From an uncultured Actinomycetes bacterium (lineage in GTDB: Bacteria > Actinomycetota > Actinomycetes > S36-B12 > CAIYMF01), in assembly GCA_963843975.1 (NCBI GenBank), contig CAWJMG010000001.1:720001-752000 (forward strand): a DNA stretch of 32,000 nucleotides, given 5' to 3'. Both the position numbers and the translations under genes were made by a program. A model generated the notes under the pieces. That model was given only the letters and a program-made list of their open reading frames with translations, did not search any database and was not told the DNA's origin. Numbering within the stretch: the stretch's first letter is position 1; each line of letters begins with the position of its first letter. Positions 8,530-29,878 of this stretch are shown here, piece by piece.

Positions 8530-8797
8530 CAGGCGTACCTCCGTGTACGGGACAGGTTCCAGGGGCGGTGGACCGCTCCTGCTCGTCCTCATCGGGAGGG
8601 GTAGGGCGGACCTGAGCGGAACTGCACGCGGTTGCAGCGCCTGACCGGTCCTCCCACGCCCTCCGGCCGACGCATGCTGGAGCGATCGTTCCAGGGAAGC
8701 CGTGTCGGCCACACCCTCGGAGGGCACCCGCCGTAGCCTCACGAGGACGGCCCGGATGACCGGTCGTCCGCGCCGAGCACGCATGAAGGAGGCTCCC

Positions 8798-9394
8798 GTG
8801 GCCGCACCCACCCGCCGCCCGGCCCAGGACCTGGCGCTGATCGCCGTGTTCGCCGGCGTCATCGCCGCCCTCGGGCTCGTGCCCGCCGTCTTCGTGCCCG
8901 GCTTCCCGGCCCCCATCACTCTGCAGTCGATGGGCGTGGTGCTCGCCGGTGCGGTCCTCGGATCGCGCCGCGGCTTCCTGGCGGTGCTGCTGTTCCTGGC
9001 ACTCGTCGCGCTGGGGCTCCCGCTGCTGTCCGGCGGACGCGGCGGCCTGGCCGTGTTCACCACGCCGTACGCCGGGTTCCTGTGGGCCTTCCCGTTCGCG
9101 GCGCTCGTCGTCGGCCTGCTCACCGAGCGCCGGGGTGCGCCGTACCAGCTCCGCTACGGCATCCCGTTCAACGTCGTGGGCTCGCTCGTGCTCTACCTCG
9201 GCGGCTGGATCAGCCTCATGACCCTGGGCGGCAACACACCCGTCGCCGCCCTCGCACTGCTCGTCATCTACATCCCCGGCGACGCCGTGAAGATGGTGCT
9301 CGCCGCACTCGTGGCACGCGGCGTGCACGCGGCGCTGCCGGACCTGCTCCCGGCGCGCAGGAGCAGCGATGAGCCCGTCGACGTCCCAGCCTGA
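8798..9394 (+). CDS. bioY: BioY-family ECF transporter substrate-binding (S) component
   Basis: BioY hallmarks PITLQSMGVVLAGAVLGSRRG and YIPGDAVKMVLAA in a multi-TM protein. The GTG at 8798 lies about 5 nt after GAAGGAGG. An ATG at 8783 or the listed 8702 are alternative starts. Confidence 0.8.
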   Translation: MAAPTRRPAQDLALIAVFAGVIAALGLVPAVFVPGFPAPITLQSMGVVLAGAVLGSRRGFLAVLLFLALVALGLPLLSGGRGGLAVFTTPYAGFLWAFPFAALVVGLLTERRGAPYQLRYGIPFNVVGSLVLYLGGWISLMTLGGNTPVAALALLVIYIPGDAVKMVLAALVARGVHAALPDLLPARRSSDEPVDVPA

Positions 9395-10385
9395 CCGGGC
9401 ACGGGACGTCCTCGCCGAGGCCGACCCGGTCGCTGCCTTCCTCGCGGCGCACGAGGCGGGCGACGACGTCCTGCTCCGTACGTCGGGCACCTCGGGCGCG
9501 CCTCGCGTCGTACGCCGGACCACGTGGTCGTGGGTCGACTCGTTCGTCGCGGTCGAGTCCCTCACCGGGTTCGCGACGGCGTCGCGCACATGGATCCCCG
9601 CACCGATGACCGGCACGATGAACCTCTTCGCGGCCGTGCACGCCCGCTTCCTCGGGGCCGAGGTCGTCGACGACCCGCACCGCGCCACGCACTGGTTCCT
9701 GACGCCCGCGGCACTGCACGACGTCCTCGACTCCGGCGAGCGGTTCGACGGCGTGCGCGCGGTCGTCGCCGGCGACCGGCTGACCGTCACGCTGCACGAC
9801 CGAGCGTCCGCAGCCGGCGTCACCGTGAGCCACTACTACGGCGCGGCCGAGCTCTCGTTCGTCGCGTGGGGCTCCCACGAGGGCGACCTCTCGGCGTTCC
9901 CCGGAGTGGAGCTCGAGGTACGCGACGGCGTGGTGTGGGTGCGCTCGGCGTACGTGTCAGCGGGCTACCTCGACGGCGACGGGCCGTTCCTGCAGGGCCC
10001 GGATCGCTTCGCAACGGTGGGCGACCGGGGTGTGCTCCGCGGCGCACGGCTGACGGTGCTCGGCCGGGACGACGTGGTGCTCACCGGCGGTGCGACCGTG
10101 CACGTCGCGGACGTGGAAGGCTGCCTGCGGGCAGGTGCCACCGGGGCGCTCGCCGTCGTCGGGATCCCGCATCCCCGGCTGGGAGCAGTCGTGGCCGCCG
10201 CGCTCGAGCACCGGGACGATGTCGCGCCGCTGCGCACCCTGTCGCGCGCCGAGCTCGCGACGTCGCACCAGCCGCGGCGATGGTTCGTGCTCGCACCGTT
10301 CCCGCTGACGCCGACGGGCAAGGTCGACCGCGACGCGGTGGCCGCTCGCATCGCTGCGGGCGAGGGCGCGGAGGTGGCGCCGTGA
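9369..10385 (+). CDS. Short adenylate-forming (ANL) acyl-CoA ligase-like enzyme, 338 aa
   Basis: ANL core motifs are present: TSGTSGAPR (A3, only about 38 aa from the N-terminus), YYGAAE (A5), FATVGD (A7), GRDDVVLTGG (A8) and PLTPTGKVDR (A10). It lacks most of the usual N-terminal subdomain, like the short actinobacterial MenE-type ligases. It overlaps the bioY 3' end by 26 nt. Confidence 0.8.
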   Translation: MSPSTSQPDRARDVLAEADPVAAFLAAHEAGDDVLLRTSGTSGAPRVVRRTTWSWVDSFVAVESLTGFATASRTWIPAPMTGTMNLFAAVHARFLGAEVVDDPHRATHWFLTPAALHDVLDSGERFDGVRAVVAGDRLTVTLHDRASAAGVTVSHYYGAAELSFVAWGSHEGDLSAFPGVELEVRDGVVWVRSAYVSAGYLDGDGPFLQGPDRFATVGDRGVLRGARLTVLGRDDVVLTGGATVHVADVEGCLRAGATGALAVVGIPHPRLGAVVAAALEHRDDVAPLRTLSRAELATSHQPRRWFVLAPFPLTPTGKVDRDAVAARIAAGEGAEVAP

Positions 10386-11518
10386 CCGGCCATCCCGTCA
10401 TCGTCGGCGCGCTGCGGTCGCCGATCGGCACCTCGGGCCGCTCCCTCTCCGACGTCGGCGCCGCCGAGCTCGCCGCCACCGTGCTCCGCGGGCTGCGGCC
10501 GCTGCTGGACGAGCACGCGCTCGAGCCCGGCGAGGTCGTGCTCGGCAACTGCATGGGCCCGGGCGGCGACGTCGCACGCGTGGCCACTCTGGCCGCCGGG
10601 TTCGACGTCTCGGTGCCCGCGCTCACGGTCGACCGCCAGTGCGCGAGCGGGCTCGCGGCGATCGCAGTCGCCACCGCATGCCTGCGCGCCGACCGCGGCG
10701 TGATCCTCGCGGGTGGGGTCGAGTCGGTGTCGACGGCGCCGTGGCGGATGTGGCCGCCGCGTGACGGCGGCGAGCCCGTGCGCTACGAGCGCGCGCCGTT
10801 CGCGCCGTCCCCTGAGCTCGACCCAGACATGGGCGTGTCGAACGACCACCTCGCCGCCGAGCACGGCATCACCCGTGAGCGTCAGGACGAGTACGCCGCG
10901 CGGTCGCACGAGCGAGCCGCAGCGGCCATCGCCTCGGGCGCGTACGACGCCGAGCTCATCGCGGTCGGCGACGTCGTGCGCGACGACCGCCCCCGCCAGG
11001 GGCTGACCGTCGAGCGGCTCGCCCGGCTCCGGCCGGCGTTCCGTGAGGGCGGGACGGTGACGGCCGGCAACTCGTGCGGCATCAGCGACGGGGCTGCCGC
11101 TGTCGCGCTGGTGGACGATGAAACCCATGAGGAACTGGGGATCCCGGGCCTTCGGGTGCTGGCCACGGCAACAGCGGGGGTCGACCCGCGACGACCCGGC
11201 ATCGGCCTCGTGCCGGCGGTGGAGCGTGCCGTGATCGCGGCCGGGATCGGCTTCGACGACCTCGACGTGATCGAGATCAACGAGGCGTTCGCCGGCCAGG
11301 TGCTCGCCTGCTGCGACGCACTCGGGCTCGACCCGGCACGCGTCTGTCCCGAGGGTGGCGCGCTGGCGCTCGGGCACCCGTGGGGCGCGTCCGGCGCTGT
11401 GCTCGTCGTACGTCTCTTCAGCCAGCTAGCGCTGCGCGACGGCGGGCGGTACGGGCTCGCGGCTATCGCGGCCGGGGGCGGTCAGGGCGTCGCGATGGTG
11501 GTCGAACGATGCCCGTGA
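10382..11518 (+). CDS. Thiolase-family protein (acetyl-CoA C-acyltransferase-like, C-terminal catalytic Cys absent)
   Basis: GTGA overlap with the ligase stop. Thiolase motifs are VDRQCASGL (nucleophile Cys), NEAFA and GHPWGASG (His). The usual C-terminal CxGGGxG reads AIAAGGGQG, with Ala where the Cys should be. Confidence 0.85.
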   Translation: MTGHPVIVGALRSPIGTSGRSLSDVGAAELAATVLRGLRPLLDEHALEPGEVVLGNCMGPGGDVARVATLAAGFDVSVPALTVDRQCASGLAAIAVATACLRADRGVILAGGVESVSTAPWRMWPPRDGGEPVRYERAPFAPSPELDPDMGVSNDHLAAEHGITRERQDEYAARSHERAAAAIASGAYDAELIAVGDVVRDDRPRQGLTVERLARLRPAFREGGTVTAGNSCGISDGAAAVALVDDETHEELGIPGLRVLATATAGVDPRRPGIGLVPAVERAVIAAGIGFDDLDVIEINEAFAGQVLACCDALGLDPARVCPEGGALALGHPWGASGAVLVVRLFSQLALRDGGRYGLAAIAAGGGQGVAMVVERCP

Positions 11519-12201
11519 TCGAGGTCCGCGGCGTGACGCACGCCTTCGGCGTCGGCTCGGCGCGACGCCCGGTTCTCCGCGACGTCACCGTGACCCTCAC
11601 CGAGCAGCGCGTGGGCATCATCGGCGCGAACGGCTCCGGCAAGTCGACGTTCGCGCGCCTGCTCAACGGCCTCGTGCTGCCCGACAGCGGAACGGTCGCG
11701 GTCGACGGTGCGGACGCGAGGAGGGACGGCAAGGAGGTCCGCCGCCGCGTCGGCTTCGTGTTCACCGATCCCGACGCGCAGATCGTGATGCCGACCGTGC
11801 AGGAGGACGTCGCCTTCGGCCTGCGCCGCCGCGGCCATTCCTCCTCCGTCGTGTCGGCCATGGTGACCCGGGCGCTGGCCGACTTCGGGCTGAGCGCACT
11901 GGCCGACTCGCCCGCGCACTCGCTCTCGGGCGGAGAGAAGCAGCTGCTCGCCCTGTGCTCGGTGCTGGTGACCGAACCGTCGGTCCTCGTGCTCGACGAG
12001 CCGACGACGCTCCTCGACCTACGGAACGCCCAGCACATCGGGCGCGTCATCGCCGGCCTGCCGCAGCAGGTGGTGCTCGTGACGCACCACCTCGAGCTGC
12101 TGGAGTCGTACGACCGCGTGCTCGTCTTCGACGAGGGCCGCATCGTGCATGACAGCTCTCCCGCACCGGCCATCGAGCACTACCGGCGGCTGATGGCATG
12201 A
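11509..12201 (+). CDS. ECF transporter ATPase (A component, BioM/EcfA/CbiO type)
   Basis: The start MPVIEVRG at 11509 overlaps the thiolase 3' end. Walker A GANGSGKST, signature LSGGEKQ, Walker B VLVLDEPT. Confidence 0.85.
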   Translation: MPVIEVRGVTHAFGVGSARRPVLRDVTVTLTEQRVGIIGANGSGKSTFARLLNGLVLPDSGTVAVDGADARRDGKEVRRRVGFVFTDPDAQIVMPTVQEDVAFGLRRRGHSSSVVSAMVTRALADFGLSALADSPAHSLSGGEKQLLALCSVLVTEPSVLVLDEPTTLLDLRNAQHIGRVIAGLPQQVVLVTHHLELLESYDRVLVFDEGRIVHDSSPAPAIEHYRRLMA

Positions 12202-12800
12202 GGGACCTCTCTCTCTACGTGCCCGGCGACTCCGTGCTGCACCGCACCCGCGCCGGGGTGAAGCTGCTCGTGCTGCTCGCCGTCTCGGTGCTCACTATCT
12301 GGCTGCGCACGCCCTGGCAGATCGCGGCCGTCGGCGCCGTGGTGCTCCTCGGCTATGCGATCGCGCGGTTCTCGCCTGCGCTGGTCTGGCGCCAGGTCCG
12401 GCCGATGATGTGGGTGCTGCTGTTCATCGGCGCGTTCCAGGCGTGGGCCGCCGGGTGGGCGCGTGCGGTCGTCGTCGTCGGCACTGTGCTCGTGCTCGTG
12501 CTCGCCGCCGCGCTCGTCACGCTGACGACGCGCACCACCGCGATGGCCGACGCCGTCGTCACCGCGTGCCGGCCGCTGCGCCGGCTCGGCGTCGATCCTG
12601 AGCGCGTCGGGCTCATGCTGGCGCTCGGGATGCGCTCGGTGCCGGTCGTGGTGGGGGCGGCGTACGACGTGCGCGATGCTCAACGGGCGCGCGGCGTGGT
12701 CTTCGCGCCGCAGGCCTACACCGTGGCGCTCGTCGTCCGCTCGCTGCGGATGGCGACCGCCCTGGGCGATGCGCTGCTCGCCCGTGGGCTCGACGACTGA
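12198..12800 (+). CDS. ECF transporter transmembrane (T) component (BioN/EcfT/CbiQ type)
   Basis: ATGA overlap with the ATPase gene. A 200-aa polytopic protein with an Arg-containing cytoplasmic helix region (ALGMRSVPVV...RDAQRARG) typical of T components. Confidence 0.7.
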   Translation: MRDLSLYVPGDSVLHRTRAGVKLLVLLAVSVLTIWLRTPWQIAAVGAVVLLGYAIARFSPALVWRQVRPMMWVLLFIGAFQAWAAGWARAVVVVGTVLVLVLAAALVTLTTRTTAMADAVVTACRPLRRLGVDPERVGLMLALGMRSVPVVVGAAYDVRDAQRARGVVFAPQAYTVALVVRSLRMATALGDALLARGLDD

Positions 12801-12813
12801 GACCCGAAAAGTC

Positions 12814-12832
12814 AACTGCCCCAAGGGCAGTT
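12814..12832. terminator. Perfect 8-bp stem / 3-nt loop hairpin after the ECF operon
   Basis: AACTGCCC-CAA-GGGCAGTT lies 14 nt after the ecfT stop. It is flanked by GAAAAG on the + strand, which gives CTTTTC after the hairpin on the - strand. There is no U-tract on the + side. Confidence 0.45.
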
Positions 12833-12877
12833 AGCGTGAGCCTCCCCGCCGTGAAGGCCAGCGAGAGGTCGCCACTC

Positions 12878-14026
12878 ATGGACACCTGGAACACCGACGA
12901 ACGACGCCTGCTGCGCGAGTCGGTACGCCGGTTCAGCGAGCGCCAGGTGCTGCCGAACCTGGCGCGCTGGGAGGCGGACGGGCTCGTGCCGCGCGAGCTG
13001 CACCGAGCCGCGGCCGACGCAGGGCTGCTCGGCATCGGCTTCCCCGAGTCCGCGGGCGGCAGCGGAGGCACGCCGGTTGATGCGTTCATCGTCGCGGAGG
13101 AGCTGATCCTGTCCGGCGGGTCGTCCGGTCTCGTCGCCGCGCTCTTCACCCACGGCATCGGGCTGCCCCACCTCGTCACCGCGGGAAATCCCGCCCTGAT
13201 CGACCGCGTGGCGCGCCCCGTCCTCGAGGGCGAGCGCATCGTGTCCCTGGCCGTCACCGAGCCCGACGGCGGATCCGACGTCGCAGGCATCCGCACCCGC
13301 GCTGTCGTGGACGGCGACGACTACGTCGTCACGGGTGCGAAGCTCTACATCACCTCGGGCACACGCGCGGACTTCATCACCACCGCCGTGCGAACCGGGG
13401 GCGACGGTGCGGGCGGCCTGTCCCTGCTCGTGATCGACAGCAGCACGCCCGGCGTCACGGTCTCGGCGCCGCTGGCCAAGATGGGCTGGCTCTGCTCGGA
13501 CACCGCCGAGATCACCTTCGACGAGGTGCGGGTGCCTCGGGCCAACCTCGTCGGCACCGAGGGCAGCGGGTTCCTGCAGATCGTCGGCCAGTTCGCCGCC
13601 GAGCGGCTGAGCATCGCCGTGCAGGCGTACGCCACCGCGCAGCGGTGCCTCGACCTCACCATCGCCTGGACGCAGCAGCGCGAGACGTTCGGCCGCCCGC
13701 TCGTGAGCCGCCAGGTCGTGGCGCACCGTCTCGCCGAGATGGCCCGCGACGTCGACGTCGCCCGCACCTACACCCGCGCCGTCACCGACGACTGGCTCGC
13801 CGGCGACGACGTCCTCATGCGCGTCGCGATGGCCAAGAACACCGCGGTCGCCGCCTGCGACCGCGTGGTCGATGCCGCGGTGCAGCTGCACGGCGGCATG
13901 GGCTACATGCGCGAGTGCGAGGTCGAGCGGCACTACCGCGACAGCCGCATCCTCGGCATCGGCGGCGGAGCGACGGAGATCATGACCGAGATCGTCGCCA
14001 AGCTCCTGCTCCCCCGCCCCACCTGA
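12878..14026 (+). CDS. Acyl-CoA dehydrogenase
   Basis: ACAD fold motifs: SLAVTEPDGGSDVAG, YITSG, QRETFGRPL, and the C-terminal YRDSRILGIGGGATEIM with the catalytic Glu region. ATG at 12878 (MDTWNTDE) is preferred over the listed GTG at 12836. Confidence 0.9.
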   Translation: MDTWNTDERRLLRESVRRFSERQVLPNLARWEADGLVPRELHRAAADAGLLGIGFPESAGGSGGTPVDAFIVAEELILSGGSSGLVAALFTHGIGLPHLVTAGNPALIDRVARPVLEGERIVSLAVTEPDGGSDVAGIRTRAVVDGDDYVVTGAKLYITSGTRADFITTAVRTGGDGAGGLSLLVIDSSTPGVTVSAPLAKMGWLCSDTAEITFDEVRVPRANLVGTEGSGFLQIVGQFAAERLSIAVQAYATAQRCLDLTIAWTQQRETFGRPLVSRQVVAHRLAEMARDVDVARTYTRAVTDDWLAGDDVLMRVAMAKNTAVAACDRVVDAAVQLHGGMGYMRECEVERHYRDSRILGIGGGATEIMTEIVAKLLLPRPT

Positions 14027-14464: not shown

Positions 14465-14590
14465 GGCATCGAGTGTGCCGGTGAGGGAGCCGCGCGCGCA
14501 GGCAGTCGGACGTGACGGCGGAACCGCTCCCTCATGGGTGGTGCGGTCTCTCGGTCGTGTCGTGGATCCCTCGCGCGTGCCGGCCCTTCT

Positions 14591-16117
14591 TCAGGGCCGG
14601 GTTCGCCGGGGCGCGGGGTCGGGTGGTTCGAAGGTGAGCCAGATCGGGCAGCCCGGGTCGATGCCGGGGTTCGTCACGATGGTCCAGCCACCCTCGTGCA
14701 CGGCGTGGTGATGGCGGGCGCAGAGCAGGGTCAGGTTGTCGAGGTTGGTTTCCCCGCCCGCCTCCCACTCGTGGAGGTGGTGGGCCTCGCACCAGCCGAC
14801 CCCGATCCGGCAGCCCGGGAACGCGCAGTGCCGGTCCCGGATCTCCAGCGCCCGACGCAGCCGCGGTGGGACGGTGCGGTAGCGGCGGCCCTCGTCCCAC
14901 ACGTGCGCGCGACGGCGCAGCAGCCGGGCGGAGTCCGGATCGAGGTCGCAGCCCGCGACCGGGTGCAGCAGACCCAGGCCGTGGTGTGCCTGGGTGTGCG
15001 CCGACCGGCGTGCGTCGCCGTGGTGGGCGGGGCCGTGGTGGGCGGGGCCGTGGCAGGGGACGCCGTCGTGGTGGTGGGTGTGCCGGTCCGCGACCGACCC
15101 GACGGTGGACAGCTCGGTGACATCGGCGTCGCAGAGCATCCGCTTGACGGTCTCCCCGTTGACCAGGACGGGGTTGGCGTAGCCGGGGACGGTCAGCTCG
15201 CCGGGGAACCCGGCGGTCACGTCGTCGACAGTGGTGGTCAGGGTGATGTGGGGCTTGACCCCGTGGGACTGGCCGACCAGGCCGTTGCCCAGCCACAGCT
15301 GCACCAGGTGGTTGAGGGACAGGGCGTCCTGGTGCGCGGATGCGTTGCGGCGCCGCCGCTCATCGACCGCGTCGTCCCCGGTGGGCTGCTCGTCGGGGGT
15401 CAGGGATCCCTCTCGGTACTTCGCATCCCGCATCCGGTCCAGCAGCACCTTGAGCGCTGCCCCGTTCTCGAGCGTGAGCGCGCCCTTGATCACGAACTGG
15501 TCCCCGACCTGGGTGACCGTCAGGAACTGGGAGGCCATCGCCTCCTCCGCGCGGCGGGACGCGGCCTCCGGATCCAGGATCTCCTTCAAGACCGCGGCGG
15601 CGCCGACGACCTCCTCCACCGAGCCCTGCTCGGCGATCGGGAGCAGGTACTCCTCGCAAAAGGTCCGCCACTGCACGCGGTCGGCGTCGACCTTGTCCGC
15701 GATCGCGGCCTCGCTGCCCCGCATCACCGCAGCGGCCAGGTCCGGGGTGATCCGGCCGGCGACCTGCGCGACCCGAGTCGCGGCATACGAGCGCTGCGTG
15801 CGCGCCGCCGACACCACCGACCCCGCCCGGCCCGGAGCCATCCCGGTGCGCTGGGCCAGGAACGCCTTCGTCGACCCGAACCCCTGCGACAGCAGCACAC
15901 CCGACGCATCGAGCCGATCCACCGCGAACGCACCCAAGGAGTGCGCCGCGTCGCGCACCGCGAACAGCTCCGCCGTCAGCTCCGGCAGACCGGCGAGCGA
16001 CACCTCCGAGACGGCACCCGAACCCGCAAGCGCACACGCCTCCGTCAGCATCCCCCGCACCCCGGCGACCAGGCGTGCGAACTCACGCCCGGTGTCGACG
16101 GAGGTGGCCTGACTCAT
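14591..16117 (-). CDS. DUF222 / HNH endonuclease (13E12-repeat-type family)
   Basis: 508 aa from MSQATSVD (ATG 16117). The helical N-terminal domain is typical of DUF222. The C-terminal HNH nuclease motif is CAFPGC...CEAHHLHEWEAGGETNLDNLTLLCARHHHAVH. Confidence 0.85.
   Translation of the reverse strand: MSQATSVDTGREFARLVAGVRGMLTEACALAGSGAVSEVSLAGLPELTAELFAVRDAAHSLGAFAVDRLDASGVLLSQGFGSTKAFLAQRTGMAPGRAGSVVSAARTQRSYAATRVAQVAGRITPDLAAAVMRGSEAAIADKVDADRVQWRTFCEEYLLPIAEQGSVEEVVGAAAVLKEILDPEAASRRAEEAMASQFLTVTQVGDQFVIKGALTLENGAALKVLLDRMRDAKYREGSLTPDEQPTGDDAVDERRRRNASAHQDALSLNHLVQLWLGNGLVGQSHGVKPHITLTTTVDDVTAGFPGELTVPGYANPVLVNGETVKRMLCDADVTELSTVGSVADRHTHHHDGVPCHGPAHHGPAHHGDARRSAHTQAHHGLGLLHPVAGCDLDPDSARLLRRRAHVWDEGRRYRTVPPRLRRALEIRDRHCAFPGCRIGVGWCEAHHLHEWEAGGETNLDNLTLLCARHHHAVHEGGWTIVTNPGIDPGCPIWLTFEPPDPAPRRTRP
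15017..15053. repeat. About 2.5 tandem copies of a 15-nt unit inside the HNH gene
   Basis: On the + strand GCCGTGGTGGGCGGG occurs twice, followed by a partial GCCGTGG. This encodes HGPAH-HGPAH-HG in a His-rich linker just before the HNH domain. Confidence 0.8.
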
Positions 16118-16123
16118 GGCGTA

Positions 16124-16152
16124 ATCGTACACCTGTACTATTGACAGCACAA
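16124..16152 (-). promoter_or_regulatory. Candidate promoter giving a leaderless HNH transcript
   Basis: The minus strand reads TTGTGC-17 nt-TACGAT, then 6 nt, then the ATG at 16117. No SD is present. This spacing is what leaderless actinobacterial mRNAs show. Confidence 0.35.
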
Positions 16153-29029: not shown

Positions 29030-29665
29030 TCACACGCGGACGCGCGCGACCTTCCACGACGAGGTCCAGATGCGCTCGAGCATCACGCGCTTGCCGGGGT
29101 ACGGCGAGTGCCAGATGTAGCCGTTCCCGGCGTAGATCGCGACGTGGTAGATCCGGCCGCTGGAGGAGTAGAAGAAGACGAGGTCGCCCTTGACGGCCTT
29201 GCTCTTCTTGATCGGGATCGCCCACGCGTACTGGTCGCGCGAGACGCGCGGCAGCGAGATGCCGAGGCGCGAGTACACGTAGCGCGTGTAGCCCGAGCAG
29301 TCGAAGCCGGTCGAGGGGCTCGTGCCGCCGGCGCGGTAGGCGATCCCCTTGAAGCGCATAGCCGTGGCCACGGCCGCCTTGCCGCGGACGACCGGGTCGG
29401 CCTTCGCGGCGGCGCTCAGCTTCACGAAGCCGGTGCGGGCGGCCGGCAACGAGTACGTCGCGGTCGGCGCCGTCGTGACGGCGGTGGTGGACGACGACAG
29501 CGACGACGTCGTGAGCGTCGTCGTGCTGACCGAGGTCTCGGTGATGGTCGAGGTGCCGGTGTCCGAGGGCACGGCGGCCGAGGCCGGGGCCGTGAACGCG
29601 GGCAGCAGCGTGAGCGCCAGGGCAGCCGAGACGGCCGCGCCGAGGCGCGCGCGAGCAGACGCCAT
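29030..29665 (-). CDS. Secreted NlpC/P60 (C40) peptidoglycan endopeptidase
   Basis: 211 aa from MASARARLGAAV (ATG 29665, with GGAGG 6 nt upstream). It has a signal peptide ending ASA-AV and a Ser/Thr-rich linker. The NlpC/P60 core is GFDCSGYTRYVY (catalytic Cys) ... YHVAIY (His). Confidence 0.9.
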   Translation of the reverse strand: MASARARLGAAVSAALALTLLPAFTAPASAAVPSDTGTSTITETSVSTTTLTTSSLSSSTTAVTTAPTATYSLPAARTGFVKLSAAAKADPVVRGKAAVATAMRFKGIAYRAGGTSPSTGFDCSGYTRYVYSRLGISLPRVSRDQYAWAIPIKKSKAVKGDLVFFYSSSGRIYHVAIYAGNGYIWHSPYPGKRVMLERIWTSSWKVARVRV

Positions 29666-29680
29666 GAAGTCCTCCACGAC

Positions 29681-29846
29681 GCCTGCGAGGTGAGCTGTCG
29701 GGTTCGGGTCGTGGATTGACCCGGCCGGTCCGGGGACCGGCTTCACCCCGAGGGCTCGCCGTGCGGCGAGGCCCGGAAATCCTGGGTCCCCCGCTCCTGC
29801 CAGCGAGGTCATGACCGGGGGCGACTGGCAGGACTCGGCGTCCACC
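29681..29846 (-). promoter_or_regulatory. ydaO-yuaA (c-di-AMP) riboswitch
   Basis: The minus strand reads, in order: ...GAGUCCUGCCAG...CUGGCAGGAGCGGGGGACCCA...CGGGGUGAAGCC...CCGGGUCAAUCCACGACCCGAACCCGACAGCUCACCUCGCAGGCG. This reproduces the ordered conserved blocks of the ydaO motif, including the 3' CCGACAGCUnACCUCGnAnGCG box. It ends 16 nt before the NlpC/P60 start. Cell-wall hydrolases are a classic actinobacterial target. Confidence 0.7.
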
Positions 29847-29878
29847 CTCGGCGCCCGTCGGGTGACGGGCCGTGACGG

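Follow-up and report, generated by a model that had tools for sequence, protein, structure and literature searches.

The window analysed here is a 32,000-nucleotide stretch from an uncultured actinobacterium (genus CAIYMF01; assembly GCA_963843975.1, contig CAWJMG010000001.1, positions 720,001 to 752,000), and it harbors an energy-coupling factor (ECF) transporter operon of the biotin type with two enzyme genes in its middle. Five plus-strand genes, bioY, an acyl-AMP-forming ligase of the ANL type, a thiolase, ecfA and ecfT, are chained by overlaps (Table 1). The preliminary description of this DNA had given the same gene order and the same overlaps, and both are borne out by the coordinates and the family matches. 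The locus is well supported as an actinobacterial, fully fused BioY-YhfT-YhfS module, in which a two-enzyme cassette is placed between the S component and the A and T components of a BioYMN importer. The kind is already known from yhfUTS of Bacillus subtilis; the variant here is the fused actinobacterial form with a truncated ligase. The window has a G+C content of 72%, and the host genome is near-closed (3 contigs, 92.9% complete).

Table 1. Features of the bioY operon and its flanks, in window positions.
Feature	Position	Strand	Remark
Intergenic region between a divergent CheX-like gene and bioY	8530-8797		holds promoter and leader
18-bp perfect palindrome CTGGAGCGATCGTTCCAG	8677-8694		121 nt 5' of the bioY start; candidate operator only
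TAGCCT, candidate -10 hexamer within CCGTAGCCT	8734-8739	+	read by eye
bioY ribosome-binding site AAGGAGG	8786-8792		precedes the GTG start
bioY	8798-9394	+	GTG start; 198 aa; S component of biotin ECF transporter
Short ANL (acyl-AMP-forming) CoA ligase	9369-10385	+	338 aa; YhfT-clade orthologue; 26-nt overlap with bioY
Atypical thiolase	10382-11518	+	378 aa; YhfS clade; GTGA overlap with ligase
ecfA, ECF transporter ATPase (BioM-like)	11509-12201	+	230 aa; 10-nt overlap with thiolase
ecfT, ECF T component (BioN-like, CbiQ family)	12198-12800	+	200 aa; ATGA overlap with ecfA
Hairpin AACTGCCC-caag-GGCAGTT	12814-12832	+	inside the 35-nt spacer from ecfT to the next gene; without U-tract
Acyl-CoA dehydrogenase (ACAD)	12836-14026	+	396 aa; no equivalog match

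Pfam and NCBIfam profiles bear out all five assignments at the family level. BioY matches PF02632 with E = 1.8e-32 and 112.6 bits (cut-off 25). The ATPase passes ABC_tran (PF00005) at 99.5 bits and reaches 195 bits on the ECF ATPase model TIGR04520, under its 315-bit equivalog cut-off, and the T component matches CbiQ (PF02361) at 47.8 bits. By tblastn, the genome has no second T component of the ecfT kind. The BioY family, together with the absence of BioB and BioD in the host, leads us to infer that BioY-EcfAT transports biotin. It is highly doubtful that the operon BioY imports some other compound, to be processed by the two enzymes. The three BioY paralogues of the host genome (operon copy included), and nearest ligase structures that act on non-biotin acids, would suit such a cargo; however, the operon BioY is 88% identical to a stand-alone paralogue and has a normal score on the family model, and most carriers of the module have a single BioY and no BioB, so that this BioY must carry biotin.

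The preliminary description held that bioYMN operons normally contain three genes only. The five-gene form is in fact common in Actinomycetia, and a Firmicutes counterpart, yhfUTS, is known (PMC4016012). Within the genus, the ligase is found in 6 of 28 genomes, the host included, and the order is the same wherever the contig permits: the full five-gene order is shared by G020, G007 and G021, and the loci of G001 and G050 show the bioY-ligase(-thiolase) part. The remaining members have a distant BioY (31–35% identity) without the enzymes, or no BioY. Nocardioides, Janibacter, Marmoricola, Nakamurella and several metagenome-assembled genomes (MAGs) from outside the genus share the five-gene order. 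The bioY gene is found on the other strand in Intrasporangium and Phycicoccus, and in Petropleomorpha, Trujillonella and Arthrobacter the ligase-thiolase pair is convergent with bioY-ecfA-ecfT. Of 301 genomes sampled evenly across the class, 16 have a ligase orthologue, one of them the host; among the 15 other carriers, bioY is the gene immediately 5' of the ligase, in the same orientation, in 14, and the fifteenth locus is at a contig edge. A chance insertion, which the preliminary description had left as a possibility, does not fit an order conserved in this way in the genus and in at least eight other actinobacterial genera. Because the synteny is conserved, the enzymes can be taken as functionally tied to BioY.

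Petropleomorpha and Trujillonella have a MOSC-domain gene added to bioY-ecfA-ecfT (L087:10120-10647 and L088:10131-10658); this might point to the reduction of an oxidised vitamer.

The operon ligase matches the AMP-binding Pfam profile over profile positions 167–384 only. Its N-terminus is about 115–150 residues shorter than that of Bacillus YhfT, and the alignment begins at residue 151 of the Priestia homologue. Despite the shortening, the AlphaFold model has a pLDDT of 88.7 and a pTM of 0.81. In 23 orthologues of both phyla the P-loop residues S39 and G40, the YGxxE motif (Y157, G158, E161), D219, G232-R233 and the A10 lysine K318 are invariant. Short N-terminal domains have precedents in the short actinobacterial MenE PRK07824 (362 aa) and in PDB 4gs5 (350 aa). 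Judged from the conserved residues and the model, the ligase looks functional.

The nearest structures to the model are E. coli MenE and MatB-type ligases (TM 0.69–0.74 on the query), yet the ligase fails both MenE models, with 80.8 bits on NF005877 (cut-off 345) and 50 on TIGR01923 (cut-off 330). It ranks seventh among the ANL proteins of the genome on the MenE model, and a 262-bit candidate is located elsewhere, at C3:2244212. The identity of a canonical MenE, which the preliminary description had named as one outcome that would undo its reading, is therefore rejected. The match to the steroid-24-oyl-CoA synthetase model is weak. In Longivirga aurantiaca, the nearest named relative, the ligase is 85% identical. 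Against the BioY-linked ligases of Priestia, Caldanaerobius, Shouchella and a Symbiobacteriaceae MAG the operon ligase scores 87–107 bits, as compared with at most 48 bits for the best ANL paralogue in its own genome. By these scores, the ligase is an N-terminally shortened YhfT orthologue.

The thiolase matches Thiolase_N and Thiolase_C, and TIGR01930 at 354 bits. Its best equivalog match is the YhfS model PRK06690 (NF005212), at about 308 bits and below the 498-bit cut-off; among the six thiolase loci of the host the operon copy scores highest on this model, and the five paralogues reach at most 242 bits. A Bacillaceae cluster that passes PRK06690 (602 bits) sits in the bioY-ligase-thiolase-hotdog-MaoC locus of Priestia megaterium. 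The operon thiolase is thus, by model score, a member of the YhfS clade, not an equivalog.

Alignment to solved thiolases places Ala363 at the site of the acid/base cysteine (Cys378, Zoogloea numbering). The nucleophile Cys87, the NEAF Asn300 and the GHP His332 are kept, and the equivalents of the pocket residues Met157 and Met288 are Val116 and Pro272. Zoogloea ramigera PhaA, Clostridium acetobutylicum ThlA and BktB share about 40% identity, the fold and the same Cys, Asn and His with the operon enzyme; they differ from it at Cys378, at the pocket methionines and in the covering loop. Ala363 is invariant in 17 of 17 orthologues. Among 150 cluster representatives (50% identity), almost all of the nearest 40 or so have Ala, Gly or Ser at the Cys378 site, and Cys appears only further out. 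All 83 canonical thiolases compared have Cys there, whereas it was never found in about 60 clade members. Set against the 83 canonical enzymes, the 60 base-less ones further have both pocket methionines replaced, and they share a RAxFxP...DP covering loop specific to the clade as well as an Arg at position 344; neither Cys87 nor His332 varies in the clade. Bacillaceae proteins of the YhfS equivalog also lack the acid/base Cys and have Gly instead, B. subtilis YhfS itself being outside the comparison. Cys232 was considered as a relocated catalytic base and rejected as not diagnostic, being present in 68% of the clade and also in 25% of the canonical thiolases. As judged from the aligned residues, the clade enzyme is not a canonical thiolase.

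In condensation, Cys378 takes the proton from acetyl-CoA; in thiolysis, it protonates the departing enolate. Cys-His-Asn is sufficient for decarboxylating condensing enzymes such as ketoacyl synthase III (KAS III) and chalcone synthase. Since the acid/base Cys is absent, ordinary thiolysis or Claisen condensation of acetyl-CoA is unlikely; a malonyl-dependent, KAS-like decarboxylative condensation or plain acyl transfer would fit the retained Cys-His-Asn better and is more likely. No relevant report of base-less thiolases came up in a literature search. A parallel from biotin metabolism is the condensing enzyme BioZ of alpha-proteobacteria, a KAS III-like member of the thiolase superfamily that uses glutaryl-CoA and malonyl-ACP (acyl carrier protein) with a Cys-His-Asn-type site and no general base. 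BioZ, however, belongs to a different, FabH-like family and is found in prototrophs with bioFADB, genes that are missing in the host.

Rodionov et al. in 2002 reportedly placed the yhf genes in the BirA regulon. In B. subtilis, BirA with biotin and ATP binds the operators of bioWAFDBI, yuiG and yhfUTS, and YhfU is a BioY paralogue (PMC4016012). In Staphylococcus aureus BirA represses yhfS-yhfT (PMC6391492; reviewed in PMC5640590), an operon separate from bioY (PMC6391492). The Firmicutes homologues are switched on at biotin shortage, not at excess (PMC4016012, PMC6391492). Both systems consist of an ANL ligase and a thiolase of the same clades as the operon enzymes, along with a BioY paralogue. 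The operon pair differs from yhfUTS in that it sits inside a dedicated bioY-ecfA-ecfT operon, and its host, unlike the yhfUTS hosts, makes no biotin and has a group I biotin ligase without a helix-turn-helix (HTH) domain. In BioMNY of Rhodobacter capsulatus and bioYMN of Corynebacterium glutamicum the S, A and T genes are likewise co-operonic, but the two enzyme genes between S and A/T are peculiar to the present operon in this comparison. The assignment of the enzyme pair as the actinobacterial counterpart of Bacillus yhfT-yhfS is well supported by the clade memberships.

The starvation pattern of the Firmicutes homologues, repressed by BirA and biotin (PMC4016012, PMC6391492), would also suit a biotin-sparing response. 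The pair would then leave the BioY substrate alone and would supply or reroute acyl-CoAs, for example from scavenged fatty acids, when biotin-dependent carboxylases fail. Its enrichment in auxotrophs, the S. aureus operon apart from bioY (PMC6391492) and the stand-alone pairs of Knoellia, Propionibacterium cyclohexanicum and Shouchella are consistent with this. However, the pair is linked to the S component itself, in several gene orders and at least two phyla (Priestia, Caldanaerobius and the Symbiobacteriaceae MAG included), which is the usual pattern for a transporter and the enzymes of its cargo. Elongation without malonyl-CoA would need the acid/base Cys that the clade lacks, and the ligase is nearer to MenE and MatB than to the long-chain FadD. 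A sparing response is thus unlikely.

The distribution of biotin synthase among the carriers bears on the role of the pair. In the host genome neither BioB (best 39 bits) nor BioD was found. BioB is above the cut-off in two of the 11 carriers first examined, Janibacter terrae and P. cyclohexanicum, and in none of three more (Nakamurella, Petropleomorpha and Trujillonella). In the class sample it is present in 1 of the 15 other carriers (1/16 with the host) and in 160 of 285 non-carriers (about 56%). The 285 include the unpublished genomes G069 and G081; with both excluded the count is 158/283. The association gives a Fisher p of about 1e-4 on raw genomes. Altogether BioB is absent from 26 of the 29 actinobacterial carriers checked, and by this gene content carriers are mostly biotin auxotrophs. 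The link of the module to auxotrophy, with the clade-wide loss of Cys378, is a new constraint on its function.

Within the genus, the BioB-positive G009 and G024 have neither BioY nor the ligase, and the BioB-negative host (G000), G020 and G021, where checked, have BioY. The pattern suggests that close relatives have repeatedly gained or lost biotin prototrophy. At G000:C3:2487403-2488467 (L061) the host encodes an orphan alpha-oxoamine synthase that resembles BioF; with 380 bits it falls short of the 426-bit cut-off and is probably a different member of the family.

The preliminary description had named pimelate or a biotin vitamer among the candidates for activation. In a precursor-supply route, following the logic of BioW and BioZ, the ligase would activate pimelate or glutarate and the thiolase would build or trim 3-oxopimeloyl-CoA. 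The closest ligase structures activate dicarboxylates, Firmicutes carriers with full bio operons exist (PMC4016012), and a condensing enzyme with a dehydratase would suit a C5-to-C7 extension. Against this stand the missing BioB of the host and of most carriers, the missing BioD of the host, and a BioF-like gene that is under cut-off and elsewhere in the genome. Because of the first two, supply of pimeloyl-CoA for biotin synthesis is very unlikely in the host; precursor supply is disfavoured in general, with a very slim chance, and in the host organism it is close to refuted.

Several lineages add further enzymes to the pair. A ketoreductase gene of the short-chain dehydrogenase/reductase (SDR) family overlaps the ligase gene in a metagenomic bioY-thiolase-ligase operon, hot-dog/MaoC pairs lie 3' of the thiolase in Priestia and the Symbiobacteriaceae MAG, and an enoate reductase of the old yellow enzyme type is found 3' of the ligase in Caldanaerobius. 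Judged from these accessory genes, a CoA ester would undergo a single round of beta-carbon chemistry.

The preliminary description ended the operon at a perfect hairpin. The hairpin exists (Table 1), yet the terminator scan did not call it as a terminator, and the ACAD gene starts 4 nt past it. Since the hairpin lacks a U-tract and the ACAD begins right after, the 3' end of the operon is not established, and an end at the hairpin is not shown. An ACAD gene is directly 3' of ecfT also in G020 and G007, though not in G021 or in other genera, and its membership in the transcription unit is uncertain.

The ACAD raises the question of whether the pair could serve beta-oxidation, and trimming of the biotin valerate side chain was a further suggestion of the preliminary description. 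The ligase, the ACAD, a hydratase and dehydrogenase of the host, and the thiolase would then degrade that side chain or another ring-bearing acid. The immediate 3' position of the ACAD in the host, G020 and G007 agrees with such a path, as do the MaoC hydratases and SDRs that accompany the pair elsewhere, in the manner of steroid side-chain degradation, and the weak steroid-24-oyl-CoA synthetase match of the ligase. But the carriers, mostly auxotrophs, must conserve biotin, the proton donor of thiolysis, Cys378, is absent, the ACAD is not conserved in G021 or beyond the genus, and the enoate reductase of Caldanaerobius speaks for a reductive route. Catabolism also sits poorly with ECF importers, whose affinity is high and whose capacity is low. 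The homologues are, moreover, induced by biotin shortage (PMC4016012, PMC6391492). Beta-oxidative trimming is thus disfavoured, and catabolism as a whole is distinctly improbable.

In the region upstream of bioY, the preliminary description had proposed a search for a biotin-type operator, and none of the BioQ or BirA type was found in 8530-8797. The BioQ box TGAAC-N3-GTTCA has no exact site genome-wide and no one-mismatch site near any bioY of the host, a further difference from BioMNY and bioYMN. For BioR, no AT-rich stretch was seen in the region, the box itself not being formally scanned. As the host biotin ligase lacks the HTH domain, no BirA control is possible. Across the window and the three bioY loci, the only Rfam matches were c-di-AMP and cobalamin riboswitches, which are unrelated. 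The sequence CCGTAGCCT is common to the bioY upstream regions of the window, G020 and G021, and its version in G007 is CGTAACCT; a sigma-70 consensus scan found no promoter and did not pick up the TAGCCT hexamer.

The palindrome CTGGA-N8-TCCAG is the sole regulatory lead. It occurs at -121, -132 and -131 of the three bioY genes and at -142 in G007, the copies outside the window being looser, and no copy precedes bioY in G020, G021 or other genera, so that it is not conserved more widely and remains a lead only. The only other intergenic exact site, CTGGAACGACCGCTCCAG, is at G000:C3:1368715-1368732 (L093); its neighbours are a sugar-type ABC system and a gene of the phosphoenolpyruvate-mutase/isocitrate-lyase family followed by an FAD oxidoreductase gene. 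A second palindrome, TGACCGGTCA, was rejected as an operator, being unspecific with 136 sites at one mismatch or fewer.

The stand-alone bioY genes at G000:C1:1053396-1054110 (L002), which encodes the 88% identical copy, and G000:C1:901137-901813 (L003), with 66% identity to the operon BioY, share a conserved leader of about 130 nt with blocks such as CACAACGC, CTTGGCG...CGCCAGAGTCGG and CCCCGGAGGAC, which has no Rfam match. This leader could be a novel cis-regulatory element of bioY in a biotin auxotroph. A DNA search within the genus gave no more copies, the two-sequence fold has no covariation, and a pattern scan of metagenomes gave only chance matches, at least 120 in number; 80 of these loci were examined, and bioY adjoined none of them. 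A cobalamin riboswitch (89 bits; L003:458-677 on the minus strand, about G000:C1:900345-900564) is situated shortly before the third bioY paralogue and on the other strand.

Elsewhere in the window, a 536-aa open frame at 14534-16141 (+) has no Pfam match, overlaps a long minus-strand frame and may not be a real gene. A c-di-AMP riboswitch of the ydaO/yuaA type is present at 29665-29850 (-), with 62 bits against a gathering score of 38.

Vitamin S components of ECF systems are usually encoded beside salvage enzymes. The link of the pair to the S component, the expression of the Firmicutes homologues under starvation, the mostly auxotrophic carriers and the base-less, condensing-type enzyme together lead to a salvage reading: CoA-dependent processing of the side chain of a biotin-type acid delivered by BioY, which we favour tentatively. 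That uptake would be coupled to CoA activation of a biotin-like acid is the most plausible proposal. The biotin-dependent host would rely on uptake, and BioY would bring in biotin, or a vitamer close to it, whose side-chain carboxylate is free. This acid would be converted by the short ANL ligase, via the acyl-AMP, to the CoA thioester, and the thiolase-fold enzyme would take the acyl group onto Cys87 and carry out one carbon-carbon step on the side chain. The remaining beta-carbon steps could fall to housekeeping enzymes, or to the ketoreductase, hot-dog dehydratase and enoate reductase joined to the pair in other lineages. The net role would be the salvage or conditioning of imported biotin-type compounds under scarcity, not de novo synthesis or catabolism.

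A more specific form of this salvage is an unrecognised route in which BioY would import catabolites of biotin with a shortened chain, such as bisnorbiotin, the ligase would turn them into CoA esters, and the base-less thiolase would add two carbons by a decarboxylative condensation with malonyl-CoA. Biotin would then be restored without biotin synthase through keto-reduction, dehydration and enoyl reduction. Such a route is quite unlikely, and a literature search on bacterial biotinyl-CoA or bisnorbiotin metabolism found nothing relevant.

Several observations weigh against side-chain salvage. The nearest ligase structures activate dicarboxylates (o-succinylbenzoate, malonate, oxalate), a preference that would be compatible with glutarate or pimelate as well. 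The Cys-His-Asn argument loses some force because part of the wider clade has Thr or Val in place of Asn300, and the ACAD 3' of the operon in the genus is a hint of oxidative chemistry. The locus yielded no biotin-responsive regulatory element. Knoellia and P. cyclohexanicum carry the pair without bioY nearby, and the genes around these stand-alone pairs are uninformative. One family (f18) accounts for 10 of the 16 carriers of the class sample and has BioB in none of its 20 genomes; without it the association with auxotrophy has p = 0.087. The carriers B. subtilis and S. aureus synthesise biotin, and Priestia megaterium has BioB plus the module, so the function is not limited to auxotrophs. 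Each chemical step of the mechanism also rests on inference.

For more than 20 years the ligase-thiolase pair linked to BioY has counted among the known unknowns of the biotin regulon. The auxotrophy of the carriers and the loss of Cys378 together remove the usual guesses, pimelate supply and ordinary beta-oxidation, and thereby narrow the substrates and reactions to a short testable list. A salvage route, if true, would alter the way in which genomes are interpreted for vitamin B7 cross-feeding and auxotrophy. It would also give a function to Bacillus YhfT and YhfS, and provide a gene for the CoA activation of biotin-type acids.

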